A DNA stretch of 64,000 nucleotides from an uncultured Thermoplasmatales archaeon (GTDB lineage Archaea; Thermoplasmatota; Penumbrarchaeia; Penumbrarchaeales; Penumbrarchaeaceae). This document shows, piece after piece, positions 33,837 to 50,391 of this stretch. The translations under genes were made by a program, and so were the position numbers. Position 1 is the first letter of the stretch. Each line of letters begins with the position of its first letter. Where the stretch lies: assembly GCA_964445525.1 (NCBI GenBank), contig CAYULA010000018.1, positions 36-64,035 on the forward strand. Direction: 5' to 3'. The notes under the pieces are model-generated. The model searched no databases. It was not told the DNA's origin and saw nothing but the letters and a program-made list of their open reading frames with translations.

Positions 33837-33840
33837 GCCT

Positions 33841-34134
33841 CTACTGGGATTCTATCCTTCCAGCCTCATTTGCGTCTTTCAATGTTTGAAGTAGTGTTTC
33901 ACCAAGTCTTTTTGCCGCAACATGGGATAGGTAGATCCGGGTTGTTTTTGCCATGGTCCCGTTTTCACTGGGTATGCCGGGTAACTGGAGGAAATCTACC
34001 TGAACATCCCGCTGATTTACCTGGATGTATGCTACATTCGAATAATGTACGTGGTCCACATCCAGCTGGATATTATCAGGGTCCACCTTGAAAAGTCTGC
34101 TTATGTCTATTGTAATTATTCCTTTTTCTTCCAT
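33841..34134 (-). CDS. DUF3467-family protein
   Basis: HYSNVAYIQVNQRDVQVDFLQ ... IYLSHVAAKRLGETLLQTL matches the DUF3467 pattern (YAN...v.DF ... sp..AK.L...L). Confidence 0.6.
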   Translation of the reverse strand: MEEKGIITIDISRLFKVDPDNIQLDVDHVHYSNVAYIQVNQRDVQVDFLQLPGIPSENGTMAKTTRIYLSHVAAKRLGETLLQTLKDANEAGRIESQ

Positions 34135-34761
34135 TCATGCACTCCCCTTCGAGATTGTAACCGGGAAACTTTCATCCTGGCCTTCTATTGTGATTTTATC
34201 CACCTTATCTGCCTTAATTGCTATCAGATTGACCCTGCCAATAATGTCCTGGTATTTCCTCGATAGATGCTCATTGTAGTAATTGATGATCGCACGATCC
34301 ATTGTATCGGTTCCGTCCCTGTCATCATTGATCGCATCCATCAGAAGGGACAAAGCGATGATTTTTTTGGATTCAAAATTGACCCTGTATCTTGGTCTGG
34401 CTTTGTCACTTTCATCCTTGATCAATAGTTGGGAATCGACCAAACCCGTAAAATGAGACCTGAGAGTGGGGTATGTTGTTTCAAGAAGGTCGGCCATTTC
34501 CTTTGGTCTGAATTTGTGATACGGATCCGAGACTATCTCTTCAACCAACCTGCTTCTCATCTTGCTGTTGAAAAGTCCATCAAATGGCTCATCGCATGGT
34601 AGTTCAACCCCATTAGGAAGTTCCATAATATCTTGGTCCAACGTTGCCACCATCCTCAAGTATTCCTTTCCTGCGTAATAAAGATTTGGTATTTTTTCAC
34701 TTACTAATAAAATTCTTTCACATGGGATGATGGTGTCTATGATGTGGAATGTCCACACCAT
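34135..34761 (-). CDS. winged-helix (ArsR/TrmB-like) protein, hypothetical
   Basis: FRPKEMADLLETTYPTLRSHFTGLVDSQLLIKDESDKARPRYRV is the wHTH region. The start is uncertain; ATG 34653 would avoid overlap with the upstream ORF. Confidence 0.55.
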   Translation of the reverse strand: MVWTFHIIDTIIPCERILLVSEKIPNLYYAGKEYLRMVATLDQDIMELPNGVELPCDEPFDGLFNSKMRSRLVEEIVSDPYHKFRPKEMADLLETTYPTLRSHFTGLVDSQLLIKDESDKARPRYRVNFESKKIIALSLLMDAINDDRDGTDTMDRAIINYYNEHLSRKYQDIIGRVNLIAIKADKVDKITIEGQDESFPVTISKGSA

Positions 34762-35053
34762 GGTATTCTGAGAGATCTTGTGACCATGTCTTGTCCTTCA
34801 GGAGTACAACCTTTTCTCCTCGGGACAGATAAACCTGAATGATATCCTTTCCAAGAGGTTTCAGGATGTCTTCATCAAGGTCAAGATTCAGTTGGTTGCA
34901 TTTCAATTTACATTTTGTAATATTTTGACAGTACCCTCTTTTCTTCAACCATGCAATGAAGCATGCCACTTCAAAACCGGGATTGGGGACAGGTTCCTTG
35001 GTGTTCCGATTTCGAATCCCTTTCAATCTTTGAATTACGGGATCATCATTCAT
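34718..35053 (-). CDS. hypothetical protein (111 aa)
   Basis: ORF in the operon array, 8 nt after the DUF45 gene. The C-terminus is His-rich. No family recognised. Confidence 0.4.
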   Translation of the reverse strand: MNDDPVIQRLKGIRNRNTKEPVPNPGFEVACFIAWLKKRGYCQNITKCKLKCNQLNLDLDEDILKPLGKDIIQVYLSRGEKVVLLKDKTWSQDLSEYHGVDIPHHRHHHPM

Positions 35054-35061
35054 TTCAATCC

Positions 35062-35766
35062 TCAGGCTATTTGATACAACTCGAGTTTTGTTTTATATTC
35101 CTTCCAACTGGGAAGAACCAGGTCCAGTAATCGATAATACTCTTTCTGATGGTTCGGAACCTTCAAATGAACCAATTCGTGGAAAATGACGTATTCAATG
35201 CAGTAGGAAGGTGTCCTTATCAACTCGAGGTTGAGGTGTATTCTATTCTTTCCATGAACACAGCTGCCCCATCTCTTTTTCATTCTCTTGATTTTCATCT
35301 CCGGTCGTTTTATTCCGTGTTTGGTTACAACCTTCATCGCTTCATCCAGTATCTCATTGAACTTTATCCGGGCGTGATGTCTGTACCAATCATATAGAAG
35401 AAGTTCTACCATCTCGGGAGATCTATTTCTGGTATGAACCTCGATGAATCTCCCCTTCATTTTGACATTGATTGTTTCTGATTCGATGACCTTCAACCTG
35501 TACTGTCTTCCGAGGTAGCGGTGTGTTTCTCCACTGACATATCTTTTATTCAGATCCTCCTTCGGATACTGTCTAAAGTGAAGTCTTTTCTTCACAACCC
35601 ACCTGCCCCTCTTGTTGACGATTTCCAGTACCTTCTTGATATCGAGGTCCTCAGGTGCCCTGACTTCCACCGATCCATCCGGTTTGACCCTCGTTTCAAG
35701 GGTTTTTCTATTTGATCTCACAAGCTTGAAGGGGATCCTCTGATTTCCGTATCTTATCTCGTTCAT
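35062..35766 (-). CDS. DUF45 / YgjP-like (M48-related) zinc metallopeptidase
   Basis: HExxH in FHELVHLKVPNH, preceded by RWGSC. Its start overlaps the hsdR stop in an ATGA arrangement. Confidence 0.8.
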   Translation of the reverse strand: MNEIRYGNQRIPFKLVRSNRKTLETRVKPDGSVEVRAPEDLDIKKVLEIVNKRGRWVVKKRLHFRQYPKEDLNKRYVSGETHRYLGRQYRLKVIESETINVKMKGRFIEVHTRNRSPEMVELLLYDWYRHHARIKFNEILDEAMKVVTKHGIKRPEMKIKRMKKRWGSCVHGKNRIHLNLELIRTPSYCIEYVIFHELVHLKVPNHQKEYYRLLDLVLPSWKEYKTKLELYQIA

Positions 35767-38700
35767 GAAGCGTACCTTCTCCTTGCAATGTCCATTACCC
35801 TTTCCAGGATCAGATCGATATCGTCGAATTCGAGATGGAGGTTTTCTTTGTCCATCAAAAAATCCGATATTTCCCTCATCATCTTCTTCTGAACATCATC
35901 CCTCTTCTGCCAATCAACGATCCTGTTATCCCTGATTATCTGATCAATGGCCATTGCCAGATTGGCGGAGAGCTCTTTTGCGGGTTGCATTGTATTGTCT
36001 TTGTTCTTTGGGTCGGAGAGAACGCTGAAAGTAACTCCATAGAATGCTTTAGCGATGTCATTTCCTTCCAGGATCTCCGGTTCGTCTTCGTCCTTTCTGT
36101 TGATCACATGATCCCTGATCCTCATGGCTCTTCTGAAGTATTCGTTTTCATCGATCCTCTGCTGGCGATAGCTGTCAATTGCTTCCTTAATCAGATCGGA
36201 GAATTTCTTGTAAAAGGCCGGATCCTCTTCCCATTTATCCTGAATGGATTTGAGTGTTCTATGGGCTATTGTGTCTGCCTGGGATGCTTTACCTCTTAAT
36301 TTTGCGATCTCCTTTTCGAATTTCTCCTTGTCGAAGATGTCCACTTCCTTGGTGATTATCTCCACCTTGTCAGAGGTCACGTAGGTGTCCAGAAGTTTCT
36401 TGATCTTCGGTTCGTACTCGCTGATATCAATAACTTCGGCATATCTCTTCTTGACTGAGGCTCTGAGTTTCTGGAAGAAATGAAGGTCATCCTTGTATCT
36501 TTGAATTGTTTCGGGTTTTTGGTCCTCGAAGAATTTGGGAGTGGATAGTGCAACGGAAAGCGTTCTGGAAAACAATGAGAGTCTTTCGTAGAATGCATCC
36601 CGTATCTCTTTGTCCCCGAGAAATACCTCGTACTCCTCCTCGTCTTTTTTATTTTTTATTTCCTTGAATATGTCCCACACATCCGAATGTCTCTGAGGGA
36701 GTTTCCTGATTTCTTCCAAAATATTTGTAAGAGTGCCTTCGAGGTCTTCCTGTTCGAATTCTTCCAGCGCAGAGTAGGTTGTAAGTGCCTTGTCAAGTTC
36801 TCCCAGAATACCTGAGTAATCGATTATGTAACCGTGGTCCTTTCCTTCCTTGATCCTGTTGACCCTTGCTATAGCCTGGAGTAGAGTGTGCTCCTTCATC
36901 TGCTTGGCCAGGTATAGGATTGTATTGTTGGGGGAATCAAAACCGGTTAGCAGTTTGTCAACCACGATCAGGATCTCCGGTTCCTCCCCGTACTTGAAAT
37001 CGTTGACTATCGTGTCGTTGTAATCATCCTCGTTTCTGAATCTCTCCATCATTTTGGACCAGAACCTCTGGACCCTGTCCTCCACTTCATCCAATGGGTC
37101 TTCATGACCTTCCCTGGTGTCCGGTGATGAGATCACAACCTCGGAGATCACATCCCCGAAATCATCCAGATATTCCTTGTATTTCAATGCGGCAAGCTTT
37201 GAAGGGGTTGCTACCTGAGCTTTGAATTGTGTTCCCTTCCAGTTCCTTCTGTAATGTTCGCTTATGTCGAACGCAATCATGTGTATCTTCTGATCGGAAG
37301 AGTTCAATTGGGATATTCTGGAATATTTCTTTTTGAGATCGGTTTTCTGTTCATCGGTGAGGCCTTTGGTAACTATATCGAACCAGCTGTCAAGGGAATC
37401 CATGTCAACCTTTTGGGGAACATGTCTTCCCTCGTAAAGTAATGGAACAACCGCTTTGTCCTTTACAGCCTGGTCAATGGTGTATTCGTCGATGAACCCG
37501 CCAAATCTCTGGGCTGTGGACTTTTCACTCTTCATCAATGGAGTTCCCGTGAATCCGATGTAGCAAGCATTGGGAAGGATCTGCCTCATCCTCGCATGGG
37601 ATTCGCCGTACTGGGATCTGTGACTCTCATCCACGAGAACGAAGATGTTGGGATCCTCGATGGGAGATTTTTGTGATTTCTTCAGTGCCGAGACGAATTT
37701 GTCGATGACGGATGTGATCACAGTGGTTTTATTCTGTTTTAACTGCCTGTAAAGATCTTCCCCGGTCCTTGCTTTGTGAGGTTCCATTCCGCAGTTCTTG
37801 AAGGTGCCTTTTATCTGCTTGTCGAGATTGATCCTGTCTGTAACGATCACGATCCTGGCATTGGGTATGTCCCTGTCCATGGCGAGGACCTTTGCAAGCC
37901 AGACCATGGTAAGTGATTTTCCGGATCCCTGCGTGTGCCAGATGACCCCTCCCTTTCTCTTCTTTGAATCCTCAAATGTCTTTAATCTCCTCATGGTTTT
38001 TTTCACTGCGAAATACTGCTGGTATCTGGCGATCTTCTTTATTCCTCCGTCGAATATGATGAACTTCCTTGTCAGTTCCAGCAATCGATCTTTTCTGAGT
38101 AGGGAATGGATGGTCCTGTCCTGTTCCGTTATCTTTCTCCCTTCCGTTTCAAAGCTGTCAAAATAATCCCAGACGTAGCGAAACCTGTCGCTGAAAAGTT
38201 TATTTTTTATTGCCTGTGACAGGGGGGTGTTAATCAGATGTTCTAGCTCTTCTTCGAAATCTTCCTTTTCCTTCCATACCGACCAGAACTTCGCGGGAGT
38301 GGTTGCTGTTGCATATTTTGCTTCATTTTTGGATATTCCCAACAATATCTGTGAGTAGATAAAGAGCCTCTGGATCTCGTTCTTTTTCTGATTTCTTATG
38401 TGCTGTGAGACCGCTTCATCGATGGAATCCTTTTCATCGGGCCTCTTGCATTCGATGACCACCAGAGGTATTCCGTTTACGAAGAGCACGATATCCGGCC
38501 TTCTGTGGCCCTTTCCGTCATCTTTTTCGACCTCGAATTCCTCGGTGACGTGGAAATAATTGTTTTCAATATTATCCCAGTCGATGTAGTTCATGGTGAA
38601 ACTTCGAATGTATCCCTTTATATTCTCCTCGAAGCTCTTTCCGAGACACATCAGATCGTAGAGGTCCTGATTGGTCCTCCCCACGTTATCTATCATCACA

Positions 38701-38945
38701 TCGTCCAGGGCCTTTACCGCGTTTGTGATATTCCTGTTGGAGAAGGCATATTCGTCTTCAAGATATTCGAATCTGTTCTCCCTGAGCTTTTTTTCGAGTA
38801 TTGACGTGAGAACGACCTTCCCTTTCTTGTTTTCGCGAAGGTCAAGGGCCTCCTCCGGTGTGAGATATTCATACCCCATTTTGATGAGTAATTGTAATGC
38901 AGGTATCTGCGAGATATGATCCTCGATAAATGATGGGATGTCCAT
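35763..38945 (-). CDS. hsdR: Type I restriction enzyme, R subunit
   Basis: N-terminal PD-(D/E)xK (RPDIVLFVNGIPLVVIECK) and helicase motif I (HTQGSGKSLTM). Motif II (VLVDESHRSQ) and later SF2 motifs follow. The start is ATG 38945, with GAGGAGG 7 nt upstream; the track start 38981 overlaps the upstream gene. Confidence 0.95.
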   Translation of the reverse strand: MDIPSFIEDHISQIPALQLLIKMGYEYLTPEEALDLRENKKGKVVLTSILEKKLRENRFEYLEDEYAFSNRNITNAVKALDDVMIDNVGRTNQDLYDLMCLGKSFEENIKGYIRSFTMNYIDWDNIENNYFHVTEEFEVEKDDGKGHRRPDIVLFVNGIPLVVIECKRPDEKDSIDEAVSQHIRNQKKNEIQRLFIYSQILLGISKNEAKYATATTPAKFWSVWKEKEDFEEELEHLINTPLSQAIKNKLFSDRFRYVWDYFDSFETEGRKITEQDRTIHSLLRKDRLLELTRKFIIFDGGIKKIARYQQYFAVKKTMRRLKTFEDSKKRKGGVIWHTQGSGKSLTMVWLAKVLAMDRDIPNARIVIVTDRINLDKQIKGTFKNCGMEPHKARTGEDLYRQLKQNKTTVITSVIDKFVSALKKSQKSPIEDPNIFVLVDESHRSQYGESHARMRQILPNACYIGFTGTPLMKSEKSTAQRFGGFIDEYTIDQAVKDKAVVPLLYEGRHVPQKVDMDSLDSWFDIVTKGLTDEQKTDLKKKYSRISQLNSSDQKIHMIAFDISEHYRRNWKGTQFKAQVATPSKLAALKYKEYLDDFGDVISEVVISSPDTREGHEDPLDEVEDRVQRFWSKMMERFRNEDDYNDTIVNDFKYGEEPEILIVVDKLLTGFDSPNNTILYLAKQMKEHTLLQAIARVNRIKEGKDHGYIIDYSGILGELDKALTTYSALEEFEQEDLEGTLTNILEEIRKLPQRHSDVWDIFKEIKNKKDEEEYEVFLGDKEIRDAFYERLSLFSRTLSVALSTPKFFEDQKPETIQRYKDDLHFFQKLRASVKKRYAEVIDISEYEPKIKKLLDTYVTSDKVEIITKEVDIFDKEKFEKEIAKLRGKASQADTIAHRTLKSIQDKWEEDPAFYKKFSDLIKEAIDSYRQQRIDENEYFRRAMRIRDHVINRKDEDEPEILEGNDIAKAFYGVTFSVLSDPKNKDNTMQPAKELSANLAMAIDQIIRDNRIVDWQKRDDVQKKMMREISDFLMDKENLHLEFDDIDLILERVMDIARRRYAS

Positions 38946-38947
38946 TT

Positions 38948-39793
38948 TCAATCCTCCTCTTCTTCTTTGATTATTTTCCAATGACCTCCTCTTGGAGGGC
39001 CTATACGTTTTATGAATCCTTTTTGTTTAAGTTCAGAAATAACTTTTTGTGTGTTTCTGTGATTTATTCCGATTTTCTTGGACATCTTCCTTGTTGTAAT
39101 TTTATTGTTTTTCTCAACCAGTTCCAAGATTTTTAGTTGTGTCGAATTAAGGACCATTACGTTCTGATCTACGTCCTTTTCTATGTCCCAATTAATGGAA
39201 TTGTCCATCAGTTTATTTATCTGAACAGGATTCAATTGCCAGTATCCGCTTCTATCGGAACCAACTCGCAGAAGGCATTTATTTTTTTTCAGAAATGAAA
39301 GATATTTCTGGATATTTCGTTGATTAATTCCAATTATTTTTGATAATTCCCTTGAAGTGATCTCGCGGTTTCCACCGATCAATTCCAGGATGGAAATATG
39401 AGTATTATTCAATTTCTTTACGTCTTTTTCTATGTCCTGATCTACGTCTTTTTCTACTACCTTTTCATGTTCACCCATGGGACGTAGAAAAGTGGTGTAG
39501 AACGCCCTCCCGATCTCTTTGAATTCTGAATCAGGTTCAAGTTTCAATATTTTCATTATTCCTCTTCCCCAGTTCTCCACGAAATGAATATCCTTGAACT
39601 TCTGTGCAAGGAGAGGATTCCTTCTGTCCGATACGTTTCCTTTTCTTATCTCCTCTACAGTCATTCTATCCTTCGACAGAATGGGATCAGACGTGATTGG
39701 GTCTATCACATATCTCATTTGGGAAGTTGAACGCTTTAACTCCGTTGTTTCCGTTTCCGTTACGTAGAATCCATTGATCATTTCAATTTTCAT
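38948..39793 (-). CDS. AlbA_2-family C-terminal fragment-like protein with two tandem wHTH modules
   Basis: RRNPLLAQKF...ENWGRGIMKIL resembles the HATPase_c_4 tail of AlbA_2/RecG-like regulators. It is followed by an internally duplicated approximately 65-aa wHTH (LN(N/S)T.(I/L).ILEL...ITxRxxSKxIGIN.RN.QK). The N-terminal AlbA_2 domain is missing. Confidence 0.65.
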   Translation of the reverse strand: MKIEMINGFYVTETETTELKRSTSQMRYVIDPITSDPILSKDRMTVEEIRKGNVSDRRNPLLAQKFKDIHFVENWGRGIMKILKLEPDSEFKEIGRAFYTTFLRPMGEHEKVVEKDVDQDIEKDVKKLNNTHISILELIGGNREITSRELSKIIGINQRNIQKYLSFLKKNKCLLRVGSDRSGYWQLNPVQINKLMDNSINWDIEKDVDQNVMVLNSTQLKILELVEKNNKITTRKMSKKIGINHRNTQKVISELKQKGFIKRIGPPRGGHWKIIKEEEED

Positions 39794-39802
39794 CTCCTCA
39801 TT

Positions 39803-41131
39803 TCATGTATCATCAACCTTAACCCTCGTCTTCCCCGTCAGAAGTTGTTGCATAAGTCCTTTCTTTATTTCCGATAGGACCTTCTTTCTTTCATACAAAT
39901 TTTCGATCACACCATCAAGATCGAACAATGTTTTTGCAATCATTTTTTGTTCATTAATTTCAGGCATTGGTACCTGTATTCTCTTTAAACCACTTGGGTA
40001 AATATGAACTACAGAATGTCCTTGCCCCTTCTTTCGACTTTGTGAATAGAATATTTGGCTATTTAGAAGAAATGAGAGGAATTGAGAATCAGATTCCTTG
40101 TTTCTTAAAATAACGATATCTCCACCCGCAAAGGCATCTTCATTTCCTAGGTAGGCTATGGATTTGCCTATTTCATCAAGTGTTTCACCTGAACCTGCAA
40201 ATAAGACATCACCTGTTTTAATAGGTTCAGATTCATAAGTTGATTGTTCACTGATGTATGTTTTAAAACTATGAGTATAGAACCGATCAGTTGTATATAT
40301 TTGGCCATACGTGATACATGGAAAGCCTTCTGACCTCAGTTCACTCTTTGAAACTCCTTTTCCCCTATAGAATTGACCAAGTTCATCAAGAGTCACCACA
40401 TCCCAATCCAGAGGGACCTCTCCGATCTTTGTATCCTTGAATCCCTCTTTCTCGATGAATTCCTTGAACCGGACCTTCCCCGTGAGAAGCTGCTGCATCA
40501 ATCCTTTCTTGAGGTTCTCCTTCTCCTTGATAAGGGCCTCCGTCTTTTCAATAGCAAGGTCCCACGTTGAGAGGACCTCTGCGATCTTTTTTTGTTCAGG
40601 GAGTGGTGGAATAGGTATTAATAATGACTGGATTCTTGATAAGGCCAACTTTGGTTGGGCATTATTAGTTCCTGATTTTTTGATTAAGTATTGAATAGAA
40701 TTTGACATCATAATATATTTCAAAAAAACTTTATTAATTATGATATTTGTTAATTTATTTGCGTTTTCCGTTAGATTGGCACCATCTAGGTCAAGGGGAA
40801 TTTCTCCAACAATTCCTAATGTTCCAGCAACTGAAATAAACAAATCATCTTTTGATATTGTGTATCTTCGTATTGATGGAAAAACCTCCTCTGGGACATA
40901 ATGAATATCATCTGTTTTTACTCCTCCCATGTGCATGTCAACAACTCTGATATATGGATGTGAAGTCTTAATATCTGTAACAAATGTCCCTTTTGGTAAT
41001 CGTTTTCCACCTTTTACTTGGCAGATATCTTCAATTCTTTTTACATCCCAAGCCTTAGGAATCATACCAATTTTTGTCTCTTTATAATCATTACTTTCTA
41101 TCGACTTCATAATTCGCTTCACCTTCTTCAA
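39803..41131 (-). CDS. hsdS: Type I R-M specificity subunit (two target-recognition domains)
   Basis: Two variable TRDs are separated by conserved helices LPEQKKIAEVLS...LKKGLMQQLLTGKVRF and EQKMIAKTL...IKKGLMQQLLTGKTRV. Confidence 0.9.
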   Translation of the reverse strand: MKKVKRIMKSIESNDYKETKIGMIPKAWDVKRIEDICQVKGGKRLPKGTFVTDIKTSHPYIRVVDMHMGGVKTDDIHYVPEEVFPSIRRYTISKDDLFISVAGTLGIVGEIPLDLDGANLTENANKLTNIIINKVFLKYIMMSNSIQYLIKKSGTNNAQPKLALSRIQSLLIPIPPLPEQKKIAEVLSTWDLAIEKTEALIKEKENLKKGLMQQLLTGKVRFKEFIEKEGFKDTKIGEVPLDWDVVTLDELGQFYRGKGVSKSELRSEGFPCITYGQIYTTDRFYTHSFKTYISEQSTYESEPIKTGDVLFAGSGETLDEIGKSIAYLGNEDAFAGGDIVILRNKESDSQFLSFLLNSQIFYSQSRKKGQGHSVVHIYPSGLKRIQVPMPEINEQKMIAKTLFDLDGVIENLYERKKVLSEIKKGLMQQLLTGKTRVKVDDT

Positions 41132-41603: not shown

Positions 41604-41606
41604 CCG

Positions 41607-42476: not shown

Positions 42477-42876
42477 ATAATTTCACCCCTCTTCCAATTA
42501 TTTCATTTTGAATGTAATAATAAGATTGAGGTACAACAAATCCCTTCGATTGATCGATCAGTCCATCATCTATTGAACACCGATCGAGATCAGTAACCTG
42601 AATAGCATAACCAGAGTTGGAATTTCGGAAATATTCTTTGAACTCTCTTTCTGATACACCTGAACCTTCTTTAAAGCGATCCCATAAGTCATCAGGAGGA
42701 CCTTCAACGATTTCACCAGGTTTGAATGATGCAACGATCCTCTTCACCGGCGATGTTGAATAAATAAAGACTCGGTCAACATCCTTCTTCCAGATCCTTT
42801 TCCGGAACTCATATTTCTTCTCTCCGGAGAGGACCTTCTCAACATATTTTGGTTTCATGGAAAGGAGGACATTCAT
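42469..42876 (-). CDS. ASCH (PUA-like) domain protein
   Basis: MNVLLSMKPKYVEKVLSGEKKYEFRKR is the characteristic ASCH N-terminus. Its stop overlaps the SMODS start by 8 nt. Confidence 0.8.
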   Translation of the reverse strand: MNVLLSMKPKYVEKVLSGEKKYEFRKRIWKKDVDRVFIYSTSPVKRIVASFKPGEIVEGPPDDLWDRFKEGSGVSEREFKEYFRNSNSGYAIQVTDLDRCSIDDGLIDQSKGFVVPQSYYYIQNEIIGRGVKLYG

Positions 42877-44024: not shown

Positions 44025-44141
44025 TCATTTCTCCTCCCAGATAATATTTTGACTTGGTCCCCGTTTCCGGAACTCGTATCGTTTATCTCCGGAGAGGACC
44101 TTTTCAACGTATTTTGGTTTCATGGAGAGGAGGACGTTCAT
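44025..44141 (-). pseudogene. ASCH gene 5' fragment (38 codons), duplicate of 42763-42876
   Basis: It translates to MNVLLSMKPKYVEKVLSGDKRYEFRKRGPSQNIIWEEK. About 80 nt align with the intact ASCH 5' end with about 10 mismatches. Confidence 0.6.
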
Positions 44142-44347
44142 GTGAGTACCTCCTTCAAACTATGTGTGGCAATTTCTGAAAGATTCTTGAAAGGGATAAT
44201 CGCCAAGTAATCACCAACTAATCGCCAACAGGACCTAATCTGCCATTTATTCAGCCCAAGATCGAATAGGAGAACGTTCATTGGAGGTCCTTCATTTCCC
44301 TTATGGTTTTGATCCGGTTTTCCGTTCACTTTTTCTCCTCCTTTCAC
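44138..44347 (-). pseudogene. doubtful ORF containing a third, shorter copy of the ASCH start junction
   Basis: An internal GPPMNVLL is encoded at 44266-44300, a region that resembles the RBS + ATG junction of the ASCH gene. The rest has no recognisable family. Confidence 0.3.
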
Positions 44348-44359
44348 AAGATAATTCGA

Positions 44360-44797
44360 TCATTCCGATCCGCATAATATGCAGAAATATGTCCCTTTAA
44401 AAACAGAATATGGGTCCCTCGCTCTATCAATCACTCTTCCACAAACCGAGCACTTCTCCAATTCGAATTTCGGTGGGTCCTTCAGCTTTGTATGATTGTA
44501 TTCATTGGTTCCAAGATATGCATACATCTCGGCGTCCAGTTCCTCCCTGCATTTCTTGCATGTTTCCCATTCTCCCTCATGCTTGTGTATATAATGGTAT
44601 GAACATAATGTGTAGTGATCATGGTTCCGATAGCATGAATTACGGGCATATGAAAACATAACATATTCATCCTCATCATCGCAGATAGGCATATCACAGC
44701 ATGGGGTTCGGGTCAGGTTCTTTGTTTTCCCACAGATGAAACAGCGTTCTTTTTCCGGTTCTTTCTTTTGGTCCTTCATCTTTCTTCTGTGTGACAT
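44360..44797 (-). CDS. Cys/His-rich putative zinc-binding protein, unknown family
   Basis: CFICGK...PCCDMPIC...CYRNHDHYTLCSYHYIHKH...CKKCREE...CSVCGR...CILCG. The start is ATG 44797, 4 nt after the upstream stop; the track start 44893 overlaps by 92 nt. Confidence 0.55.
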   Translation of the reverse strand: MSHRRKMKDQKKEPEKERCFICGKTKNLTRTPCCDMPICDDEDEYVMFSYARNSCYRNHDHYTLCSYHYIHKHEGEWETCKKCREELDAEMYAYLGTNEYNHTKLKDPPKFELEKCSVCGRVIDRARDPYSVFKGTYFCILCGSE

Positions 44798-44801
44798 TTT
44801 C

Positions 44802-45191
44802 TCACTCCGTATCATCAAATGAGATGAAGTCGACAGGTTCATCGAAGGTCTTCTCTGTTGCTTCTTTGATCTTACTTCGGGTCCTTCTGTCAAAGCTCAA
44901 AATCCTCTTTTTCAACTCATCAGCAAGTCTGTTAACCTCATCGTCATCCTCCAGATCCATCTCAACATCATCCTCGGAATAGACTGTAATCATGTTGTAA
45001 TACGGATCACTGTATATCGTGATGTTACCAAGCGGGAAGGTAATCGCCTTGATGTAATCATCACCGACTTCCCCTCGACCTGTCAATATCATGCTTATTT
45101 CAAGAAATCCATGAACCCTGGAAGACGGCAATCCGTGTGATTCATCCTCGACTTTCCGTATCATGCTTTTCAATCCTTTCATGATAATCAC
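44802..45191 (-). CDS. hypothetical acidic protein (129 aa)
   Basis: ORF in the coupled array. No family recognised. Confidence 0.5.
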   Translation of the reverse strand: MIIMKGLKSMIRKVEDESHGLPSSRVHGFLEISMILTGRGEVGDDYIKAITFPLGNITIYSDPYYNMITVYSEDDVEMDLEDDDEVNRLADELKKRILSFDRRTRSKIKEATEKTFDEPVDFISFDDTE

Positions 45192-45200
45192 CCCGTTTCA

Positions 45201-46100
45201 TCATCTCTTCAACTGGAACATGAAAACATGTTCACTTCTTTTCTCCGGTACTATGCCATTTAAATTATCGGTCAATTCCTTCTTTGTCTTTCCGCATCCG
45301 ACAATGATGCCATCAAGTACTCCGAACCAGCCATTTTCAATACCAGCTTCCTTCAGTATCTTCTTGAGGTCCCTGGAATGGACCTTCCCCATCTTCTGAT
45401 GATAGTAGACCTTCAACCGTTCATCCTTGTTTTTCAGTTCCTCTATCTCCTCCCAGTACACATCACGATTGTACTGGCTCTTCAGATATACCTTCAACAA
45501 CTCCAGATCATCCGTTTTCCCTTCTCTTCCATCGTAGGGCAACGAGGTGACAATTCCATGCCTGGCTTCTGCTTTCTGAAATGAAGCGTTGAAACTTTTC
45601 TTGATCCCCGCCCCGAACCTGATGTTGTAAGGATTGATCACTCCATCATAGACGATCTTTCCCTTGAACGGAAGCAAGGTTGTTTCCATTGGCACAGGAA
45701 GATAAGGACCGAGCATATCCTCGAATGTGTTGTTCAATGTGAGTACTCCGTATGGTATCCCATCATCCTCATTCTGAGACAGAACAACAGCATATTTTTT
45801 CAGATATTTTACAATGAGAAACCTTCCTCTGATGTAATGCTTGAAGTTGCTCACGATCTCCAGTTCCTCATCATTAAATCCAATTGGATTATCTGCTACA
45901 TATTGATCGATGATGTCTGGGTCATCATAAATTGCCATTCTCATATCAAGAAGATACTCCACGGGGAAATGGAATATGTCATCCGGTTCGAGTTCTTTTT
46001 TCAAGTTTCCTTTTTTCAGATTTGCATATATCAGAAGAGAGTGAAACAACCTTAAGAATTGATCCTTGTCCTTTTTTGATAATTTCATTTTTTCAACCAT
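45201..46100 (-). CDS. hypothetical protein (299 aa)
   Basis: A long ORF in an AT-rich context, overlapping its upstream neighbour by 16 nt. No family recognised. Confidence 0.6.
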   Translation of the reverse strand: MVEKMKLSKKDKDQFLRLFHSLLIYANLKKGNLKKELEPDDIFHFPVEYLLDMRMAIYDDPDIIDQYVADNPIGFNDEELEIVSNFKHYIRGRFLIVKYLKKYAVVLSQNEDDGIPYGVLTLNNTFEDMLGPYLPVPMETTLLPFKGKIVYDGVINPYNIRFGAGIKKSFNASFQKAEARHGIVTSLPYDGREGKTDDLELLKVYLKSQYNRDVYWEEIEELKNKDERLKVYYHQKMGKVHSRDLKKILKEAGIENGWFGVLDGIIVGCGKTKKELTDNLNGIVPEKRSEHVFMFQLKR

Positions 46101-46621
46101 CCTTCAAAATTAGCATCAACATATTCATCGACCATTTCAGGGTCCTCGCTCAATTCCTTCCATTCATCAACCACAGTTTCGAAGGTTTCCTTCGGAGCAT
46201 CCGGGACATAATCTTTGTAGCTTGATGTTGATTCGTTCTCAAATTTATTAAGACCTTTCAGGATTCCCATAAAATATCTGTCTCTTTCACGGGGAAGCTT
46301 CAACTTATTGAGTTTTCTTGCTTCCTTCAAGAAGGGTTCCACCTCTTCTTCGAACAATTCCCAGGCAAGATCGTTTGGATCGACGTAACCGTTTCTCGTT
46401 CCTCCGGAATGGTCCCAGATGTACTCGACCTTGATCATATCCAGCACGCAGAACAAATTGTCACCAATGTCATCCTCATGTATATCTGTAATGAATTCTA
46501 GGGCAATCTCTTCGACCTGTTCCACCAATTCATTATTCCTTTCCATCAATGTCATCAAAATTCCGATTGAATGTCTGTTGATCAGGTCACCGAGGATTTC
46601 GGGAGGCATTCCATTTTTCAT
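46085..46621 (-). CDS. hypothetical acidic protein (178 aa)
   Basis: ORF in the coupled array with a 4-nt overlap at its start. No family recognised. Confidence 0.55.
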   Translation of the reverse strand: MKNGMPPEILGDLINRHSIGILMTLMERNNELVEQVEEIALEFITDIHEDDIGDNLFCVLDMIKVEYIWDHSGGTRNGYVDPNDLAWELFEEEVEPFLKEARKLNKLKLPRERDRYFMGILKGLNKFENESTSSYKDYVPDAPKETFETVVDEWKELSEDPEMVDEYVDANFEGWLKK

Positions 46622-46899
46622 GCTGACGCAGCTCCTTCTAATTTGAAGTGATCACATAAGATGACCATATTGCGGAGATTCGCAATATGGTTGTACTGAA
46701 TCTGGACCATTTTGTCCGATTGGACAATATTGTGTGAAGGGGTTAGAACCATTTCGTTGATGTCAACAAAATGGTTTTGAGGTGGATTGTTGACCAATTC
46801 GTGTGGATACACGATATGGTTCTGGTGTTTGTGTGTAATCATATATCGGAAATGCTCGCAATGGTCTGAAATTGAACGAGTAAAGTCAATATCACTCAT
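46618..46899 (-). CDS. hypothetical 93-aa protein with 14-15-aa internal repeats (NH(I/F)V...(M/L)V), coincident with DNA palindromes
   Basis: The frame is open across an AT-rich region and overlaps both neighbours (8 nt and 4 nt). Its coding status is uncertain because the repeats are dyad-symmetric at the DNA level. Confidence 0.4.
   Translation of the reverse strand: MSDIDFTRSISDHCEHFRYMITHKHQNHIVYPHELVNNPPQNHFVDINEMVLTPSHNIVQSDKMVQIQYNHIANLRNMVILCDHFKLEGAASA
46664..46820. repeat. four phased imperfect palindromes with conserved ACCA(T/A)(A/T)T ... A(T/A)(A/T)TGGT ends
   Basis: H1 46664-46691: ACCATATTGCG-gagatt-CGCAATATGGT, 11/11 pairs. H2 46706-46733: 10/12 pairs. H3 46747-46776: AACCATTTCGTTGA-tg-TCAACAAAATGGTT, 13/14 pairs. 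H4 46793-46820: ACCAATTCGTGT-ggat-ACACGATATGGT, 10/12 pairs. The centres are 42, 42 and 45 bp apart. Confidence 0.75.
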
Positions 46900-48259
46900 C
46901 CTCTATCACCTCCCAATTTCCTTTCTTTGTTGAACCCGACCTTCTAATTTTACCCCTTCTTTTTAAATTTCTGATATGGTAATACACACCATAATAGGAA
47001 AGGTCAAGCACCTTTGATATCTCATTGATAGAGATGTCTGGATTATTTATCATCAAAGCCATAATTTTCTCAGGAATATCTCTTGTAGTTTCTTTTGTAG
47101 TTTCTTTTGTAGTTTCTTTTGTAGTAGCCTCAATTTCTGTTATCTTTCTGAAAACCACATCAAAATTATTTCCATTCTCGAAAAGGTCCAATTCAATCTC
47201 CGGATAATCTATCAATTCCCTTCGGATACGGACCATGCCACTTCCGTATTTCTCGATCTCTTTTACCAAATAAAAGCATTCTGCGATGAGAACATTTCTC
47301 AATGAAGATGAATAATTATCTCTTTTCAGATCATCAAGTGTGATGTCACCATACAATTTTCCAGGGCTGGATATCAGGATGTGATCATCGAATACCTTGA
47401 TGATGATATCGGAAGGATTCCGATAATCTCTATGAACTATTGCATTGATGACAGCTTCCCTTAAAGCTTCCAGGGGATACTCCCAGATCTCTTTCCTCTC
47501 CGGTTCTCCTGTAAATTCAAACCGTATACTGATCTGCTTTTTGATGGCCCACATCACCTCATCGACCGCTTCAAGAAGAGGCAGATGGATCATGATGTCA
47601 TCAATTATGACCGTCGGGGTTTTAAATCTTCCAATATGTATTCCATGAACTGGCCTGCTCTTTGAAAAAAGAAGCTCAGCTGCCACTGTGGGCCTATCAT
47701 CTTTTACCAGTTCGATCTTTTCAAGGGATCCAATTGGAGTCCCATCAAAATGGAACCTGCCGACCTTATTTACTTTATCAATGAACTTCTCTATTTTGTC
47801 AAGATCAAGTTGTTCAAATGTACGACAATAGTGAGATGGAGAGGAATCCCAGGAGTATTGGATTGCCATCATGTAAAGTTCTGTTACCTCATCTATCTCC
47901 TTCTGATGGTCGCTGTTATGCTTTCTAGTATAGTATCTACCTTTGAAAGAAATCGGCTTGAAGGAAGATTCCTTCACATCTATTATTACTACACGTTTTC
48001 CGTTTGCTTCAGAGATTGCCATGTCTGGAATTATTGAAGGATTTGTTTTCGTCTTGATCTCATTGGTCCAACTCTGCAATGATTCTGGACCAACATCAAT
48101 ACCCAATATTCTACCTTTGTTATTCACCCCCAAAATCACTTTCCCACCCTTTGAATTGGAAAAAGCGGAAAGAGTCCTGATAGTTTCAGCTCCGAATGAG
48201 GATTTGAATTCGACCTCCCCGTTTTCAAGGTTTTCTAGCAACTTATCCAGTTCATTCAT
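46892..48259 (-). CDS. AlbA_2 (Schlafen-like) + HATPase_c_4 + C-terminal wHTH protein (RecG-like putative regulator)
   Basis: The N-terminal ENGEVEFKSSF...LSAFSNSKGGKVILGVNNKGRILGI is an AlbA_2 motif. The central region has REAVINAIVHRDY and EKYGSGMVRI, followed by a C-terminal wHTH. Confidence 0.8.
   Translation of the reverse strand: MNELDKLLENLENGEVEFKSSFGAETIRTLSAFSNSKGGKVILGVNNKGRILGIDVGPESLQSWTNEIKTKTNPSIIPDMAISEANGKRVVIIDVKESSFKPISFKGRYYTRKHNSDHQKEIDEVTELYMMAIQYSWDSSPSHYCRTFEQLDLDKIEKFIDKVNKVGRFHFDGTPIGSLEKIELVKDDRPTVAAELLFSKSRPVHGIHIGRFKTPTVIIDDIMIHLPLLEAVDEVMWAIKKQISIRFEFTGEPERKEIWEYPLEALREAVINAIVHRDYRNPSDIIIKVFDDHILISSPGKLYGDITLDDLKRDNYSSSLRNVLIAECFYLVKEIEKYGSGMVRIRRELIDYPEIELDLFENGNNFDVVFRKITEIEATTKETTKETTKETTRDIPEKIMALMINNPDISINEISKVLDLSYYGVYYHIRNLKRRGKIRRSGSTKKGNWEVIEDE
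47085..47125. repeat. 12-bp tandem repeat GTAGTTTCTTTT x3.4 inside the AlbA_2 gene (encodes (TKET)n linker)
   Basis: Read directly at 47085-47125. The repeat is in frame and lies between the HATPase_c_4 region and the wHTH. Confidence 0.85.
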
Positions 48260-48274
48260 TTACTCAAATCCCAC

Positions 48275-49783
48275 CTATTCATACAATCCCAGCTCCTTCA
48301 GGTATCCTACCATCTTCTCCCGGACCTCTGCAAGCTCTCCCTCGAGTTCCTCTATCCTTCTCTGGGTCGCAGGGATGTCGATCTCTTCCTCTTCCTCGAA
48401 AGTATCCACGTATCTTGGTATATTGAGATTGAAGTCATTCTCCCTGATCTCATCGAAGGTTGCCCTGTAGGAGTATTTGTCAATGGTCTTGTAATCCTTG
48501 TAGGTGTTGTGTATCTTATCGATATCCTCGTCTCTCAGCTTGTTCTGCTTTTTCCCCTTCTGGAATTCCCTGGAAGCATCTATGAAAAGGACATCGGTTG
48601 TATCCCTTCCCTTTTTATAAACCAGGATCGCAGCAGGGATTCCCGTTCCAAAGAACAACTGTGATGGAAGCCCTATCACAGCATCGAGGAGGTTCTCCTC
48701 GATAAGTTTCTTCCTGATTTTCCCCTCGCTGGATCCTCTGAAGAGGACCCCATGAGGAACGACAACCCCCACTCTTCCATCATTTTCATTCATTGTCTCG
48801 ATCATATGAGTTATGAATGCATAGTCTCCCTTGCTTTTTGGAGGAACTCCCCTGTGGAACCTCCTGAACCGGTCGTCTTTTGCATCTTCGGCGCCCCATT
48901 TATCCAACGAAAAAGGAGGATTGGCAACCACAATGTTGAATTTCATCAGTGTGTCGCCCTCGAGCAATTTGGGGTTGTTGATGGTATCTCCCCATTCGAT
49001 CTGGGCATTGTTGACACCATGCAGGAACATATTCATCTTGCAAAGTGCCCATGTTGAACCATTGAGTTCCTGACCGTAAAGGGCAAAATCCTCCGAACCC
49101 ACCTCCCTTGCCACCTTGATCAACAGAGAACCGGATCCGACGGTGGGATCACAGATCCTGTCACCTTCTTCCGGGTCCACAAGTTTCGATATTAATATGG
49201 ACACTTCAGCCGGAGTGTAGAATTCTCCTCCCTTTTTTCCAGCGTCACTTGCGAAGTGGGAGATAAGATATTCATAGGTATTTCCGATTACATCGATGTT
49301 TCCGATACGTGACGGCCGCAGATCCAGCTTGGGATTTGAGAAATCTTCGATGAGATTCTTCAAGCGCCTGTTTCTATCCTTTGTCTGCCCGAGGGCGGTC
49401 TCCGAATTGAAGTCGATATTCCTGAAAACACCCTCCAATTTCGCTTTATTTGCCTCTTCTATCCTTGCCAGGGCTATGTTTATTTTCTCTCCTATATCAT
49501 TGTCATTTCTGTGTTTGTAAATGTAATCATAGGAACAATCTTCAGGCAGGATGAAGTTCTCGAACCTCATCATGTATCTGATCCTTTTCTCATCCCTTCC
49601 GTATTTTTCCTCATATTCTGCCACTCTGTCCTTCCACAGATCGCTGATATATTTGAGGAAAAGAAAGACCAGTATGTAATTCTTGTATTCAGAAGGATCA
49701 ATGACACCTCTGAAGGTATCACAGGCTCTCCATGCGACATTGTTTATCTCGGTTTGATCAATATTATCCCCCACTCTAATCAC
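48275..49783 (-). CDS. hsdM: Type I R-M DNA methyltransferase subunit
   Basis: It has an HsdM N-domain, the SAM motif DPTVGSGSLL and the catalytic motif VVANPPFS. Confidence 0.95.
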   Translation of the reverse strand: MIRVGDNIDQTEINNVAWRACDTFRGVIDPSEYKNYILVFLFLKYISDLWKDRVAEYEEKYGRDEKRIRYMMRFENFILPEDCSYDYIYKHRNDNDIGEKINIALARIEEANKAKLEGVFRNIDFNSETALGQTKDRNRRLKNLIEDFSNPKLDLRPSRIGNIDVIGNTYEYLISHFASDAGKKGGEFYTPAEVSILISKLVDPEEGDRICDPTVGSGSLLIKVAREVGSEDFALYGQELNGSTWALCKMNMFLHGVNNAQIEWGDTINNPKLLEGDTLMKFNIVVANPPFSLDKWGAEDAKDDRFRRFHRGVPPKSKGDYAFITHMIETMNENDGRVGVVVPHGVLFRGSSEGKIRKKLIEENLLDAVIGLPSQLFFGTGIPAAILVYKKGRDTTDVLFIDASREFQKGKKQNKLRDEDIDKIHNTYKDYKTIDKYSYRATFDEIRENDFNLNIPRYVDTFEEEEEIDIPATQRRIEELEGELAEVREKMVGYLKELGLYE

Positions 49784-50372
49784 TCCCCTGAATGATATTC
49801 AATGATACCTTTTCAATGATTTTTTTCTTATGGTCGATTATATCTTCTGACAGCCTCTGTTCTTCTTTTATTAGCTTGTCCAGCATAATTATCCTCTCCT
49901 GGTTTTTCAATGATGGGACGGGGATCTCCATATTTTCAATTGTTGTTTTTTTCAAGAAAGGAACACTTGTTCCTCCCATTCTATTTTTCAGGTATCTCTG
50001 TATCTTCCTGGTTTTGAAGTACCAAAGAAGATAGTCAGGATCAATGATATTCTTATCAATGTTAATTATGAGAAATTGATCCGTTACGGCATATGATCCT
50101 TTTGGAAAATTCACTTTAAAAAATATGGGTCTTGATGATTTGGATTTTACGATGACGTCATCCGGCCCGATTATTGCAGATGTTTTGATGTCTGAAAACC
50201 TCACCCTGTGCAGTTTATGAAATTCAATATCCGAGGCCTGATCAACATCAGATGGTTGAATCAGGTTGACCTCTCCTCTCGGGAGATTCCTGATGCCATT
50301 CCTGAAAAGATGGCCCTGCCTTATGGTTGCAATATCAGCCATCTTTTTGTTGGAAGTAAATGAATACTTCAT
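49776..50372 (-). CDS. half-size Type I specificity subunit (single TRD)
   Basis: One variable domain followed by the conserved helix PSLKNQERIIMLDKLIKEEQRLSEDIIDHKKKIIE. Its stop overlaps the hsdM start by 8 nt. Confidence 0.7.
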   Translation of the reverse strand: MKYSFTSNKKMADIATIRQGHLFRNGIRNLPRGEVNLIQPSDVDQASDIEFHKLHRVRFSDIKTSAIIGPDDVIVKSKSSRPIFFKVNFPKGSYAVTDQFLIINIDKNIIDPDYLLWYFKTRKIQRYLKNRMGGTSVPFLKKTTIENMEIPVPSLKNQERIIMLDKLIKEEQRLSEDIIDHKKKIIEKVSLNIIQGSD

Positions 50373-50391
50373 GGATTGGATATGGAAAAGC

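Follow-up and report, generated by a model that had tools for sequence, protein, structure and literature searches.

The window, a 64,000-nt stretch of DNA, carries a Type I restriction–modification (R-M) operon with embedded defense cargo, in an uncultured Thermoplasmata archaeon. Our preferred reading, to which we assign a probability of about 80%, is that a bacterial-type R-M operon was acquired horizontally between rps27ae and tRNA-Arg(CCG), and that slots within it then gained and lost defense genes. Lateral acquisition had been proposed in a first-pass annotation of the sequence, and it is supported by a deviating composition, a site that is empty in other genera, the rarity of close HsdM relatives, and an HsdM clade that nests among bacteria.

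Every credible gene from 50372 down to 33841 lies on the minus strand, as do all features located below unless stated otherwise. The tight coupling read from the ORF list was confirmed, including the six junctions singled out there (49783/49776, 46899/46892, 46621/46618, 42876/42873, 42476/42469, and 35766/35763). Genes overlap or are separated by at most 15 nt, with the sole exception of 113 nt at 44025–44137, which are occupied by a remnant ORF of an ASCH 5′ end. The proposed abutment on S27ae was also found, with convergent stops 4 nt apart (S27ae ending at 33836, the first island ORF at 33841).

The domain assignments of the first-pass annotation were all upheld by Pfam and PADLOC-DB, and the R-M frame runs in the order half-hsdS, hsdM, hsdS, hsdR, DUF45. 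The operon opens with a half-size hsdS encoding one target-recognition domain (49776–50372; Methylase_S, 1.5e-9; PADLOC Specificity_I, 7e-20). Because 45/80 orthologous loci have a half-size S homolog immediately upstream of hsdM, this gene is a family trait, and its interpretation as debris was discarded. The hsdM gene (48275–49783) matches N6_Mtase (PF02384, 2e-108), HsdM_N (PF12161, 2e-30), and PADLOC MTase_I (2e-143). The full-length HsdS (39803–41131, 442 aa) has two target-recognition domains, with Methylase_S matching in two stretches (6.4e-34) and PADLOC Specificity_I spanning residues 9–440 (4e-79). HsdR (35763–38981, 1072 aa) contains HSDR_N, SWI2_SNF2/ResIII, T1R_D3, and T1RH-like_C, matches PADLOC REase_I across residues 15–1070 (2e-226), and is apparently intact. 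With the HsdM domains, a two-domain HsdS, and the nuclease, SF2 motor, and C-terminal domains of HsdR in place, the locus is a Type I R-M system of complete gene content, predicted to methylate and restrict DNA. The frame closes with a DUF45/YgjP-like (M48-type) metallopeptidase (35062–35766; PF01863, 4.5e-55). The recurrent linkage of such peptidases to Type I R-M, cited in the first-pass annotation, also holds in the orthologous family, in which a DUF45 homolog is the usual terminal gene and follows hsdR in 48 of 61 loci.

Within this frame the window holds 9.3 kb of cargo: an AlbA_2/Schlafen gene, four uncharacterized genes, DUF1016 (PDC-S02), ASCH (PDC-M11B), a two-gene CBASS, and a tandem-wHTH gene. 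The CBASS oligonucleotide cyclase, a SMODS nucleotidyltransferase (41607–42476), matches PADLOC Cyclase PDLC00776 over its full length (1.6e-112) and has its catalytic GS...DVD motif at residues 50–66 (GSFGNGTSIHGYSDVD at residues 50–65). Separated from it by 3 nt is the downstream SLATT effector (41091–41603; PADLOC Effector 2TM PDLC00712, 1.7e-65; SLATT_4), with two transmembrane helices (hydrophobic residues 40–58 and 64–86). We assign the pair to two-gene CBASS type I, with cyclic-nucleotide signaling as its predicted activity; no further CBASS models (Cap2/Cap3, HORMA/TRIP13) appeared among the matches listed for the 20 island proteins. The cyclase has more than 1,100 homologs; the top one from any other genome shares 67% identity with it, and those that carry a name are bacterial. 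It was not found in the assemblies of four congeners (G001–G004). The hsdM-hsdS slot also holds the 455-aa AlbA_2/Schlafen protein with HATPase_c_4 and wHTH domains (46892–48259; Pfam). The hsdS-hsdR slot holds the 281-aa tandem-wHTH protein (38948–39793; Pfam), a HATPase_c_4 fragment with two winged helices, which is 24–31% identical to the AlbA_2 protein over the latter's C-terminal third.

Four further cargo ORFs encode proteins that match no Pfam, PADLOC, or NCBIfam family: a Cys/His-rich protein with an uncertain start (44360–44893) and proteins of 129 aa (44802–45191), 299 aa (45201–46100), and 178 aa (46085–46621). The predicted fold of the 299-aa protein (pLDDT 91) has a central OB-like barrel with only weak PDB matches, and its distant homologs (42–45% identical) are solitary, in non-defense contexts. 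Five such genes had originally been counted; four stand, but the fifth, a 93-codon ORF at 46618–46899, is probably a hairpin array rather than a gene. Four 28-nt hairpins (ACCATWT-N5-loop-N5-AWATGGT) are spaced 42–45 nt apart at 46664–46820 and are likely the relic of a DinD-like Bro-N gene. The element is unique within this genome, its core shows compensatory changes in L105, a metagenome contig of the same genus, and the same 28-mer occurs after hsdM or within Bro-N genes in 12 bacterial and archaeal loci of the R-M family. The 28-nt hairpin is common to bacteria and phages too. An integron-type cassette array was considered and rejected, as the hairpins cluster at one spot rather than one per gene and the contig carries no tyrosine integrase.

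The suggestion that the hsdM-hsdS and hsdS-hsdR intervals act as cargo slots is supported by the orthologous family. All three of hsdM, hsdS, and hsdR could be placed in 57 orthologous loci. In 51 of these, at least one of the two intervals has a gap exceeding 400 bp, and such gaps contain defense-type genes on the operon strand. From the end of hsdM to the start of hsdR, the family ranges from 1,185 to 8,616 bp (median 3,649), and the window measures 9,294 bp. Cargo ORFs of the orthologous loci lie on the operon strand in 151 of 158 cases. The cargo census comprises RhuM (17), SMODS (10), DUF3800 (7), Fic (5), AlbA_2 (5, from five loci), DUF1016 (3), and Piwi (3), and further includes SAVED, patatin, and Abi.

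Cargo also differs within the genus. The locus is complete in this genome (G000). Congener G001 shares the R-M system (HsdM 86% and HsdR 80% identical) and carries other cargo, including DarT and Macro; its assembled hsdM-to-ASCH stretch lacks the four uncharacterized genes and DUF1016, and its hsdS abuts hsdR with no tandem-wHTH gene. G004 retains only a 119-aa C-terminal hsdR remnant, and no R-M locus was found in G002 or G003. Three independent metagenome contigs of the genus (L105–107) represent an intermediate cargo state: they keep the 178-, 299-, and 129-aa genes in the same order (78% nucleotide identity) and lack the Cys-rich gene. The same array is therefore not conserved in all relatives, in keeping with the island interpretation: congeners have different cargo, a remnant, or nothing. 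Since L105 groups with G001 on the HsdM tree, the absence of the uncharacterized genes from G001 may reflect loss, and the direction of each cargo insertion or deletion is uncertain.

These comparisons bear on whether the embedded genes might be co-adapted accessory or guardian subunits of the R-M enzyme rather than exchangeable cargo. There is precedent in PrrC, which is embedded in EcoprrI and guards the R-M enzyme (PMC12707154), and in TgvAB, which is embedded in an hsd operon on Vibrio cholerae VPI-2 and gave stronger protection as part of the complete R-M cluster than by itself (PMC11411939). The window's cargo likewise shares the operon strand, start and stop codons overlap, and the positions of AlbA_2 and ASCH are unchanged across the three versions of the locus within the genus, the AlbA_2 gene in both G001 and L105. 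However, cargo varies among orthologous R-M loci even inside the genus, the same cyclase and SLATT_4 pair occurs elsewhere without Type I R-M, beside unrelated systems, and DUF1016 belongs to a stand-alone candidate family (PDC-S02). We regard guardian subunits as an unlikely account of the cargo; the idea may hold for AlbA_2 and ASCH alone.

Composition separates the frame from much of what it encloses. By GC and tetranucleotide comparison, the island deviates from its flanks and genome beyond chance, and the hand-counted G+C values from which low GC was first suspected (9, 24, 27, and 35 of 60) proved exact on recount. Island GC is 41.65%, against 47.6% for the genome; among 609 segments of 16.5 kb genome-wide (mean 47.9%, sd 2.3%), 1.8% are as low, and the tetranucleotide distance to the genome falls in the top 2.1%. 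The deviation is thus real, but it is mosaic rather than uniform. GC3 is 0.55–0.57 in hsdM (0.551) and hsdR (0.568), near the genome median of 0.577, and 0.28–0.40 in hsdS (0.323), CBASS, ASCH, the tandem-wHTH gene (0.39), and AlbA_2; the C-terminus of HsdS is merely 47% identical to that of G001. In composition, hsdM, hsdR, and DUF45 look host-like, and hsdS and most of the cargo look foreign. Because G001 has the frame (80–86% amino acid identity) without the cargo, and a deletion remnant persists in G004, the frame predates the species split. The R-M frame, with its host-like GC3, is older, hsdS and most of the cargo are younger, and the locus is not one single acquisition.

Of 37 class genomes, just 2 encode a close HsdM (E <= 1e-150), and the nearest relatives outside the genus are bacterial (57–74% identical). 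On the HsdM tree, the genus forms a clade (support 100/100) whose sister is a pair from Omnitrophota and Spirochaetia (95/96); the tree is unrooted, so the case for a bacterial origin comes from distribution and not from a rooted test of donors. The insertion site is defined by relatives in three other genera of the same family (G006, G007, G008, G012, and G017), where tRNA-Arg(CCG) sits 170–280 bp past S27ae; in G007, an FG-GAP gene follows the tRNA, as in the window. The true variable interval is therefore 33837–53644. Of the island limits first drawn, the S27ae side holds, but the far edge is the tRNA (53645–53719; ARAGORN) and not position 50372.

The interval adjoins the 3′ end of a tRNA gene, a site classically used for integration. 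With its low GC and a syntenic site that is empty in other genera, it could be taken for a mobile element (an integrative island or the remnant of a provirus) that arrived in a recent single insertion at tRNA-Arg. Yet the contig has no tyrosine integrase (PF00589), and repeats of the tRNA in the window are no longer than chance, with none above 16 nt; on these grounds a tRNA-integrated island was rejected. The mosaic composition, with host-like hsdM, hsdR, and DUF45, and a frame older than the species split also speak against it, and we give this account little credence. No recombinase, integrase, or att repeat was found to account for the original insertion.

A junction scar is preserved within the cargo. 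The DUF1016/YhcG PD-(D/E)xK nuclease gene (42873–44024; YhcG_C, 7e-66; DUF1016_N; PADLOC PDC-S02, 5e-149) interrupts an ASCH gene at its 5′ end; G001 and L105–107 have no DUF1016 between the array of uncharacterized genes and ASCH. The intact ASCH (PUA-like) gene (42469–42876; PADLOC PDC-M11B, 9e-44; Pfam ASCH weak) has homologs in the corresponding position of G001 (69% amino acid identity) and L105. The two-gene PDC-M11 candidate appears incomplete, with PDC-M11B only and no PDC-M11A among the matches listed for the 20 island proteins, which for five of them are the best 25 families. Repeats of the ASCH 5′ end bracket DUF1016: in a second copy at 44061–44154, 85% of 94 nt are identical to 42796–42889, and a repeat search placed a third, short copy at 44268–44304. 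The segment 44061–44256 is 88% identical to the start region of the L105 ASCH gene, compared with just 79% for the intact ASCH. The stretch 38948–44300 (tandem-wHTH protein, hsdS, CBASS, ASCH, and DUF1016) is known from one assembly only.

An assembly or binning chimera, in which a foreign low-GC R-M block was joined to the archaeon's locus, might be suspected from the origin of the genome as an 89-contig metagenome bin, from the 37.9% GC of 38948–42876, and from the ends of L105–107, which all break off at the repeated segment, barely within ASCH, but it is highly improbable: the S27ae/DUF3467...DUF45 junction recurs in G004 and DUF45-hsdR-hsdS in G001, the run from hsdM to the 129-aa gene recurs in L105–107 with ASCH following in G001 and L105, reading frames overlap cleanly at all junctions, and hsdS genes are normally AT-rich and fast-swapping.

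Relatives also differ at the ends of the operon. The array's last gene encodes a 97-aa DUF3467 protein (33841–34134; PF11950, 3.4e-9) and adjoins S27ae in G004 too (76% amino acid identity). Two small ORFs precede it (208 aa, 34135–34761; 111 aa, 34718–35053), with no Pfam or NCBIfam family and just a weak wHTH-like SoFic match; G004 keeps them at 53–63% amino acid identity, and G001 has an opposite-strand Macro and DarT pair in their place. Between the operon and the tRNA lie an acyltransferase-3-like membrane protein (50439–51755; Pfam), an uncharacterized 340-aa protein (51883–52905) that adjoins the tRNA in G004 and L105 as well, and a second, shorter DUF45 (52977–53567; Pfam); the acyltransferase and second DUF45 are missing from the corresponding L105 interval. 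The TATA-like box placed at 50392–50401 was found (TTTAAATA), 30 nt upstream of the ATG of half-hsdS. No Shine-Dalgarno motif precedes half-hsdS, and most internal genes have GGAGG-type motifs. The box is a candidate promoter, from which this first gene would be leaderless, and we infer that it drives the whole array as a single transcript; a second TATA-like motif lies 22 nt upstream of hsdS and may act as an internal promoter.

Under horizontal acquisition with later cargo turnover, an ancestor of this Thermoplasmata genus would have gained an operon of a widespread, mostly bacterial R-M family in the short spacer between rps27ae and tRNA-Arg(CCG). Defense genes would then have been gained and lost repeatedly in both intervals, with the operon ends varying too. 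Turnover may proceed by recombination, with conserved hsdM, ASCH, and hsdR as homology anchors, and occasional illegitimate joints, one of which would explain the truncated ASCH start that precedes DUF1016. The R-M system would provide first-line cleavage of unmethylated DNA and CBASS a suicide back-up in which a nucleotide signal opens a membrane pore, while the nuclease, ASCH, and Schlafen-like proteins may add further layers.

Defense genes embedded in Type I R-M systems have already been published and were described in bacteria. Payne, Hughes, Fineran, and Jackson (2024; bioRxiv 10.1101/2024.01.29.577857) surveyed such genes in Type I R-M, BREX, DISARM, and Hma under the phrase "guilt by embedding". 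In the terms of that preprint, the window's cargo is embedded, lying between genes of one system, on the same strand, with the system otherwise intact. The survey reports 96.7% same-strand nesting (151/158 ORFs here) and many nested genes that are known or candidate defenses, and PDC-S02 and PDC-M11B are phage-defense-candidate models of the survey's kind. For Hma, the survey accepted no more than three embedded genes between the genes of a system; the hsdM-hsdS interval of the window contains about nine units. The archaeal host, the within-genus series of states, and the junction scar are further differences from what it describes.

In the RRDM island of enteropathogenic E. coli, DarTG lies between hsdS and hsdR with an associated M48 peptidase (PMC12255303). 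The window shares the Type I R-M system with embedded genes and an M48 (DUF45-like) peptidase, and G001 has DarT and Macro beside the same kind of operon; RRDM, however, starts with the RptR repressor and TAGCTA sites, and the window with a half-size hsdS and no RptR. Like the leuX region of E. coli (hotspot 37; PMC12707154), the interval is a tRNA-anchored, variable defense region whose content is replaced between relatives, but leuX keeps an integrase and the window has neither integrase nor att repeat. The cyclase and effector resemble CBASS type I with a 2TM/SLATT effector in their full-length PADLOC matches, GS...DxD motif, and two helices, and differ in lying inside an archaeal R-M operon. 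PrrC, TgvAB, and Campylobacter jejuni rlo are likewise embedded in hsd operons, where they serve as a second line of defense or a complementary one. They comprise one or two genes, whereas the window, which has no PrrC or GmrSD homolog, includes a complete CBASS and stands as an unusually heavily loaded archaeal example, with about a dozen extra defense genes.

The first-pass annotation had described an unbroken minus-strand series of tightly packed genes from 50372 down to 33841, and the ORF list agrees: adjacent ORFs overlap or lie at most 15 nt apart, the sole larger gap being 113 nt (44025-44137), which is occupied by a truncated ASCH reading frame. Its 4 nt between the end of the S27ae gene (33684-33836) and the last island stop is correct, its four hand-counted GC values proved exact on recount, and Pfam and PADLOC-DB returned every domain that it had called. 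The minus-strand array opens with a half-size hsdS (49776-50372), hsdM (48275-49783), and a gene for an AlbA_2/Schlafen, HATPase_c_4, and wHTH protein (46892-48259). Downstream of a hairpin array and four genes at 44360-46621 lie a DUF1016/YhcG nuclease gene (42873-44024; PDC-S02), an ASCH gene (42469-42876; PDC-M11B), and, from PADLOC-DB, a CBASS cyclase (41607-42476; PDLC00776, 1.6e-112) and a 2TM SLATT effector (41091-41603; PDLC00712, 1.7e-65). A full hsdS (39803-41131), a gene encoding a HATPase_c_4 fragment and two wHTH domains in one protein (38948-39793), hsdR (35763-38981), a DUF45/YgjP peptidase gene (35062-35766), and three small minus-strand ORFs complete the array. The four proteins encoded at 44360-46621 have no family in Pfam, NCBIfam, or PADLOC, and their position makes these genes defense candidates. 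One of them, of 299 aa (45201-46100), is predicted with confidence (pLDDT 91) to form helical domains around an OB-like barrel, with only weak OB-fold matches to the model. Part of this protein is common to DUF6398 (PF19935) proteins. Its more distant homologues, at 42-45% identity, occur singly in metabolic, non-defense neighborhoods, so it is called a defense gene by position only.

Expression signals were read from the sequence. A candidate element, TTTAAATA, lies 30 nt ahead of the half-hsdS ATG, which lacks a Shine-Dalgarno motif, and GGAGG-type motifs precede most internal genes. A leaderless first gene followed by Shine-Dalgarno-led internal genes is the usual archaeal pattern, and the array fits it. 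A possible internal promoter is a TATA-like motif located 22 nt ahead of the full hsdS start.

On the evidence of PsmA, the genome falls among uncultured Thermoplasmatota/Thermoplasmata; no McrA was found, and a methanogen or ANME identity was rejected on that basis. The left flank of the locus is conserved across the family. In five genomes from three other genera (G006, G007, G008, G012, and G017), tRNA-Arg(CCG) lies 170-280 bp past S27ae, and in G007 the next gene is the FG-GAP gene that also lies past the tRNA in the window. As the window carries this tRNA at 53645-53719, its variable interval extends over 19.8 kb, from 33837 to 53644. Thus, the proposed island boundary holds at its 33841 end and fails at the other, where the variable interval runs on to the tRNA and also contains genes for an acyltransferase-like membrane protein and an unknown 340-aa protein, together with a second DUF45/YgjP gene (52977-53567). 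The latter, shorter at its N-terminus, adjoins the tRNA-Arg; as DUF45 is usually the last gene of these operons, it may be a relic of an earlier R-M system at the same hotspot. No integrase was found on the contig, nor was any tRNA-derived (att) repeat. In L105, a metagenome contig of the genus, two 29-nt palindromes (ACCATTCCG...CGCAATGGT; 2565-2593 and 2722-2750, 157 nt apart) lie just upstream of tRNA-Arg; the two cores differ compensatorily, and the ends are similar to the ends of the R-M hairpin described below.

Sliding-window analysis upheld the proposal that the island differs in composition from the rest of the genome. Its GC content is 41.65% versus 47.6%, a value matched or undercut in only 1.8% of the 609 genome windows of equal length, and its tetranucleotide distance to the genome falls in the top 2.1%. 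The difference is not uniform by GC3. The values for hsdR (0.57), hsdM (0.55), and DUF45 (0.52) stand beside a genome median of 0.577 for long ORFs; the unknown genes and DUF1016 lie at 0.45-0.50, and hsdS, SLATT, the cyclase, ASCH, the wHTH protein, and AlbA_2 at 0.28-0.40. A host-like frame thus encloses specificity and cargo genes that look younger.

Close HsdM homologues (E <= 1e-150) occur in 2 of 37 genomes of the class. A collection of 185,579 species genomes yielded 80 best HsdM loci, at 57-74% identity; all come from bacteria of many phyla except one, from Methanolobus. In the HsdM tree, the genus forms a clade (support 100/100) whose sister is an Omnitrophota and Spirochaetia pair (95/96) within a mixed-phyla radiation; because the tree is unrooted, a bacterial donor rests on distribution. 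Methanolobus holds a second archaeal copy of the family (L064:11566-14149), which falls away from the genus clade and, according to the tree, would have been acquired separately. There, hsdM is followed by two hairpins, an AlbA_2 gene, a Bro-N gene carrying an internal deletion, and hsdS.

Within the genus, the locus exists in several states. Neither hsdM nor hsdR was found in G002 (97% complete) or G003. G004 retains a deletion remnant: past S27ae come the three small ORFs and DUF45, then an hsdR of which only the final 119 codons survive, adjoining the 340-aa gene, with the tRNA beyond it. G001 encodes HsdM and HsdR that are 86% and 80% identical to those of the window, but in a different layout: one contig carries half-hsdS, hsdM, AlbA_2, a shorter hairpin array, and then ASCH directly, and another has hsdS directly against hsdR without the wHTH gene. 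A Macro and DarT pair takes the place of the three small ORFs. This DarTG-like pair (L012:735-2603, in the G001 locus) lies on the opposite strand to the R-M operon, with rps27ae on one side and the operon's DUF45 end on the other. None of the four congeners (G001-G004) yielded a CBASS cyclase. A third state is seen in L105-107, three metagenome contigs from the genus; the order there is tRNA, PMT_2, 340-aa gene, half-hsdS, hsdM, AlbA_2, hairpin array, 178-, 299-, and 129-aa genes, and ASCH, without the Cys-rich gene or DUF1016. Together these form a rare within-genus series of empty site, frame with one cargo, frame with another, and deletion remnant.

A scar at the joint between ASCH and DUF1016 illustrates the refilling of a slot. 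The 5'-most 94 nt of ASCH, ribosome-binding site included, are repeated upstream of DUF1016 at 85% identity, and a third short copy lies further upstream. Compared with L105, the ASCH remnant (44061-44256) shows 88% identity and the intact ASCH only 79%; on the simplest reading, the remnant would be the start of the resident gene. DUF1016 would then have come from a more distant donor, through one illegitimate joint within ASCH and one crossover further downstream, and the stretch of low-GC3 genes that begins with ASCH and ends with the wHTH gene may derive from the same donor. L105, L106, and L107 are independent, and each ends no more than a few hundred bases into ASCH (about L105:12099), in the segment that is repeated in the window. 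The coincidence of these ends points to variation among strains or to repeat collapse at the ASCH joint.

Across the 80 loci, a half-size, single-domain hsdS lies directly upstream of hsdM in 45, hsdR lies downstream in 61, and DUF45 follows hsdR in 48 of these 61. A half-size hsdS in front and DUF45 behind are thus family traits in a census of 61 orthologous loci; the half-size gene (49776-50372 in the window; loci L025-L104) stands alongside a full hsdS downstream. The distance separating the hsdM end from the hsdR start varies among family loci between 1,185 bp, where hsdS stands alone, and 8,616 bp (median, 3,649 bp); at 9,294 bp the window exceeds them all, although flanks were limited to 10 kb in this comparison. 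The suggestion that the hsdM-hsdS and hsdS-hsdR intervals act as cargo slots is borne out by 51 of the 57 loci with hsdS also located, in which one or both intervals hold a gap of more than 400 bp. Cargo ORFs lie on the operon strand in 151 of 158 cases. Among 131 cargo ORFs scanned, the families were RhuM (17), SMODS cyclases (10), DUF3800 (7), AGS_C and Bro-N (6 each), DUF4917, Fic, and AlbA_2 (5 each), DUF1016 and Piwi (3 each), and SLATT_6, SAVED, patatin, Abi_2, AAA_21, AAA_15, Abi_C, and KilA-N (2 each). The cyclase and SLATT_4 pair is also found elsewhere without Type I R-M.

The hairpin array consists of four palindromic 28-nt units (46664-46820, minus strand) of the form ACCATWT-N5-loop-N5-AWATGGT, kept in L105 with a compensatory core change from GTTGAC/ATCAAC to CCCCAGG/TTGGGG. 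The motif, differing at 2 of 28 positions, is present in 12 of the 80 R-M loci, where it is confined to the span from hsdM to hsdR. It lies directly 3' of the hsdM stop in L060 (two copies; 4658-4721), L072 (instances in this locus at 11556-11583 and 11799-11826), and L100 (11557-11584); two copies lie about 270 nt past the stop in Methanolobus (L064:11839-11919), and L094 carries it at 11798-11825. Other copies are embedded in DinD-like Bro-N genes at codon ~64, coding there for (N/D)HFxDVxKMV, and 3 of 8 matches in plasmid records fall within annotated dinD genes. Viral contigs gave at least 112 pattern matches; 55 of the 80 examined have a complementary core (~5% expected by chance), and these 55 loci have unrelated neighborhoods in which no shared neighbor gene was found. 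Most of the phage-record matches listed lack annotation; of two annotated viral examples, one precedes a small-terminase gene and the other a small gene and a recombinase. Rfam gave no family at gathering scores across 33000-54500, with only noise at the array, and a literature search on the motif found nothing relevant.

In 24 instances, 91% of stem positions are paired and double-sided changes number 44 versus 14 +/- 3.7 in shuffles, a test biased by the partial selection of these instances for palindromy. A cleaner test, a synonymous-codon shuffle of eight Bro-N genes, gave 90 observed pairs versus 63.5 +/- 3.2 (0 of 2000 shuffles); the hairpin is preserved by codon choice within this coding sequence, with covarying residues. 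G·U pairs point weakly to the sense strand (10 to 3). The archaeal array remains similar to the Bro-N segment 3' of the motif, so it looks like a relic in which the hairpin was kept and amplified. We put at roughly one in five the chance that, in this R-M family, the hairpin marks the cargo slot at its head and is an undescribed, widely traveled nucleic-acid element acting in cis. At the RNA level, it could serve for processing or attenuation and so uncouple hsdM from the potentially toxic genes downstream; alternatively, it could form a single-strand DNA hairpin where cassettes are exchanged. A REP-like dispersed repeat is ruled out, since the element occurs at this locus only in the genome. 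The RptR operator (TAGCTA) is unrelated. The hairpin could merit follow-up on its own.

Payne et al. 2024 (10.1101/2024.01.29.577857) describe embedded genes as frequent in Type I R-M, BREX, DISARM, and Hma, with 96.7% co-oriented, and draw phage-defense candidates (PDCs) from embedding. Other published cases are PrrC (PMC12707154), TgvAB (PMC11411939), and the RRDM island (PMC12255303), which places DarTG between hsdS and hsdR and has an M48 peptidase among its R-M-associated genes. Given these precedents, the window is a heavily loaded archaeal example of an arrangement already known. With 9.3 kb between hsdM and hsdR, its load is extreme, and annotation rules that allow few intervening genes could miss it. 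The embedding of defense genes in R-M operons now extends to an uncultured Thermoplasmata archaeon.
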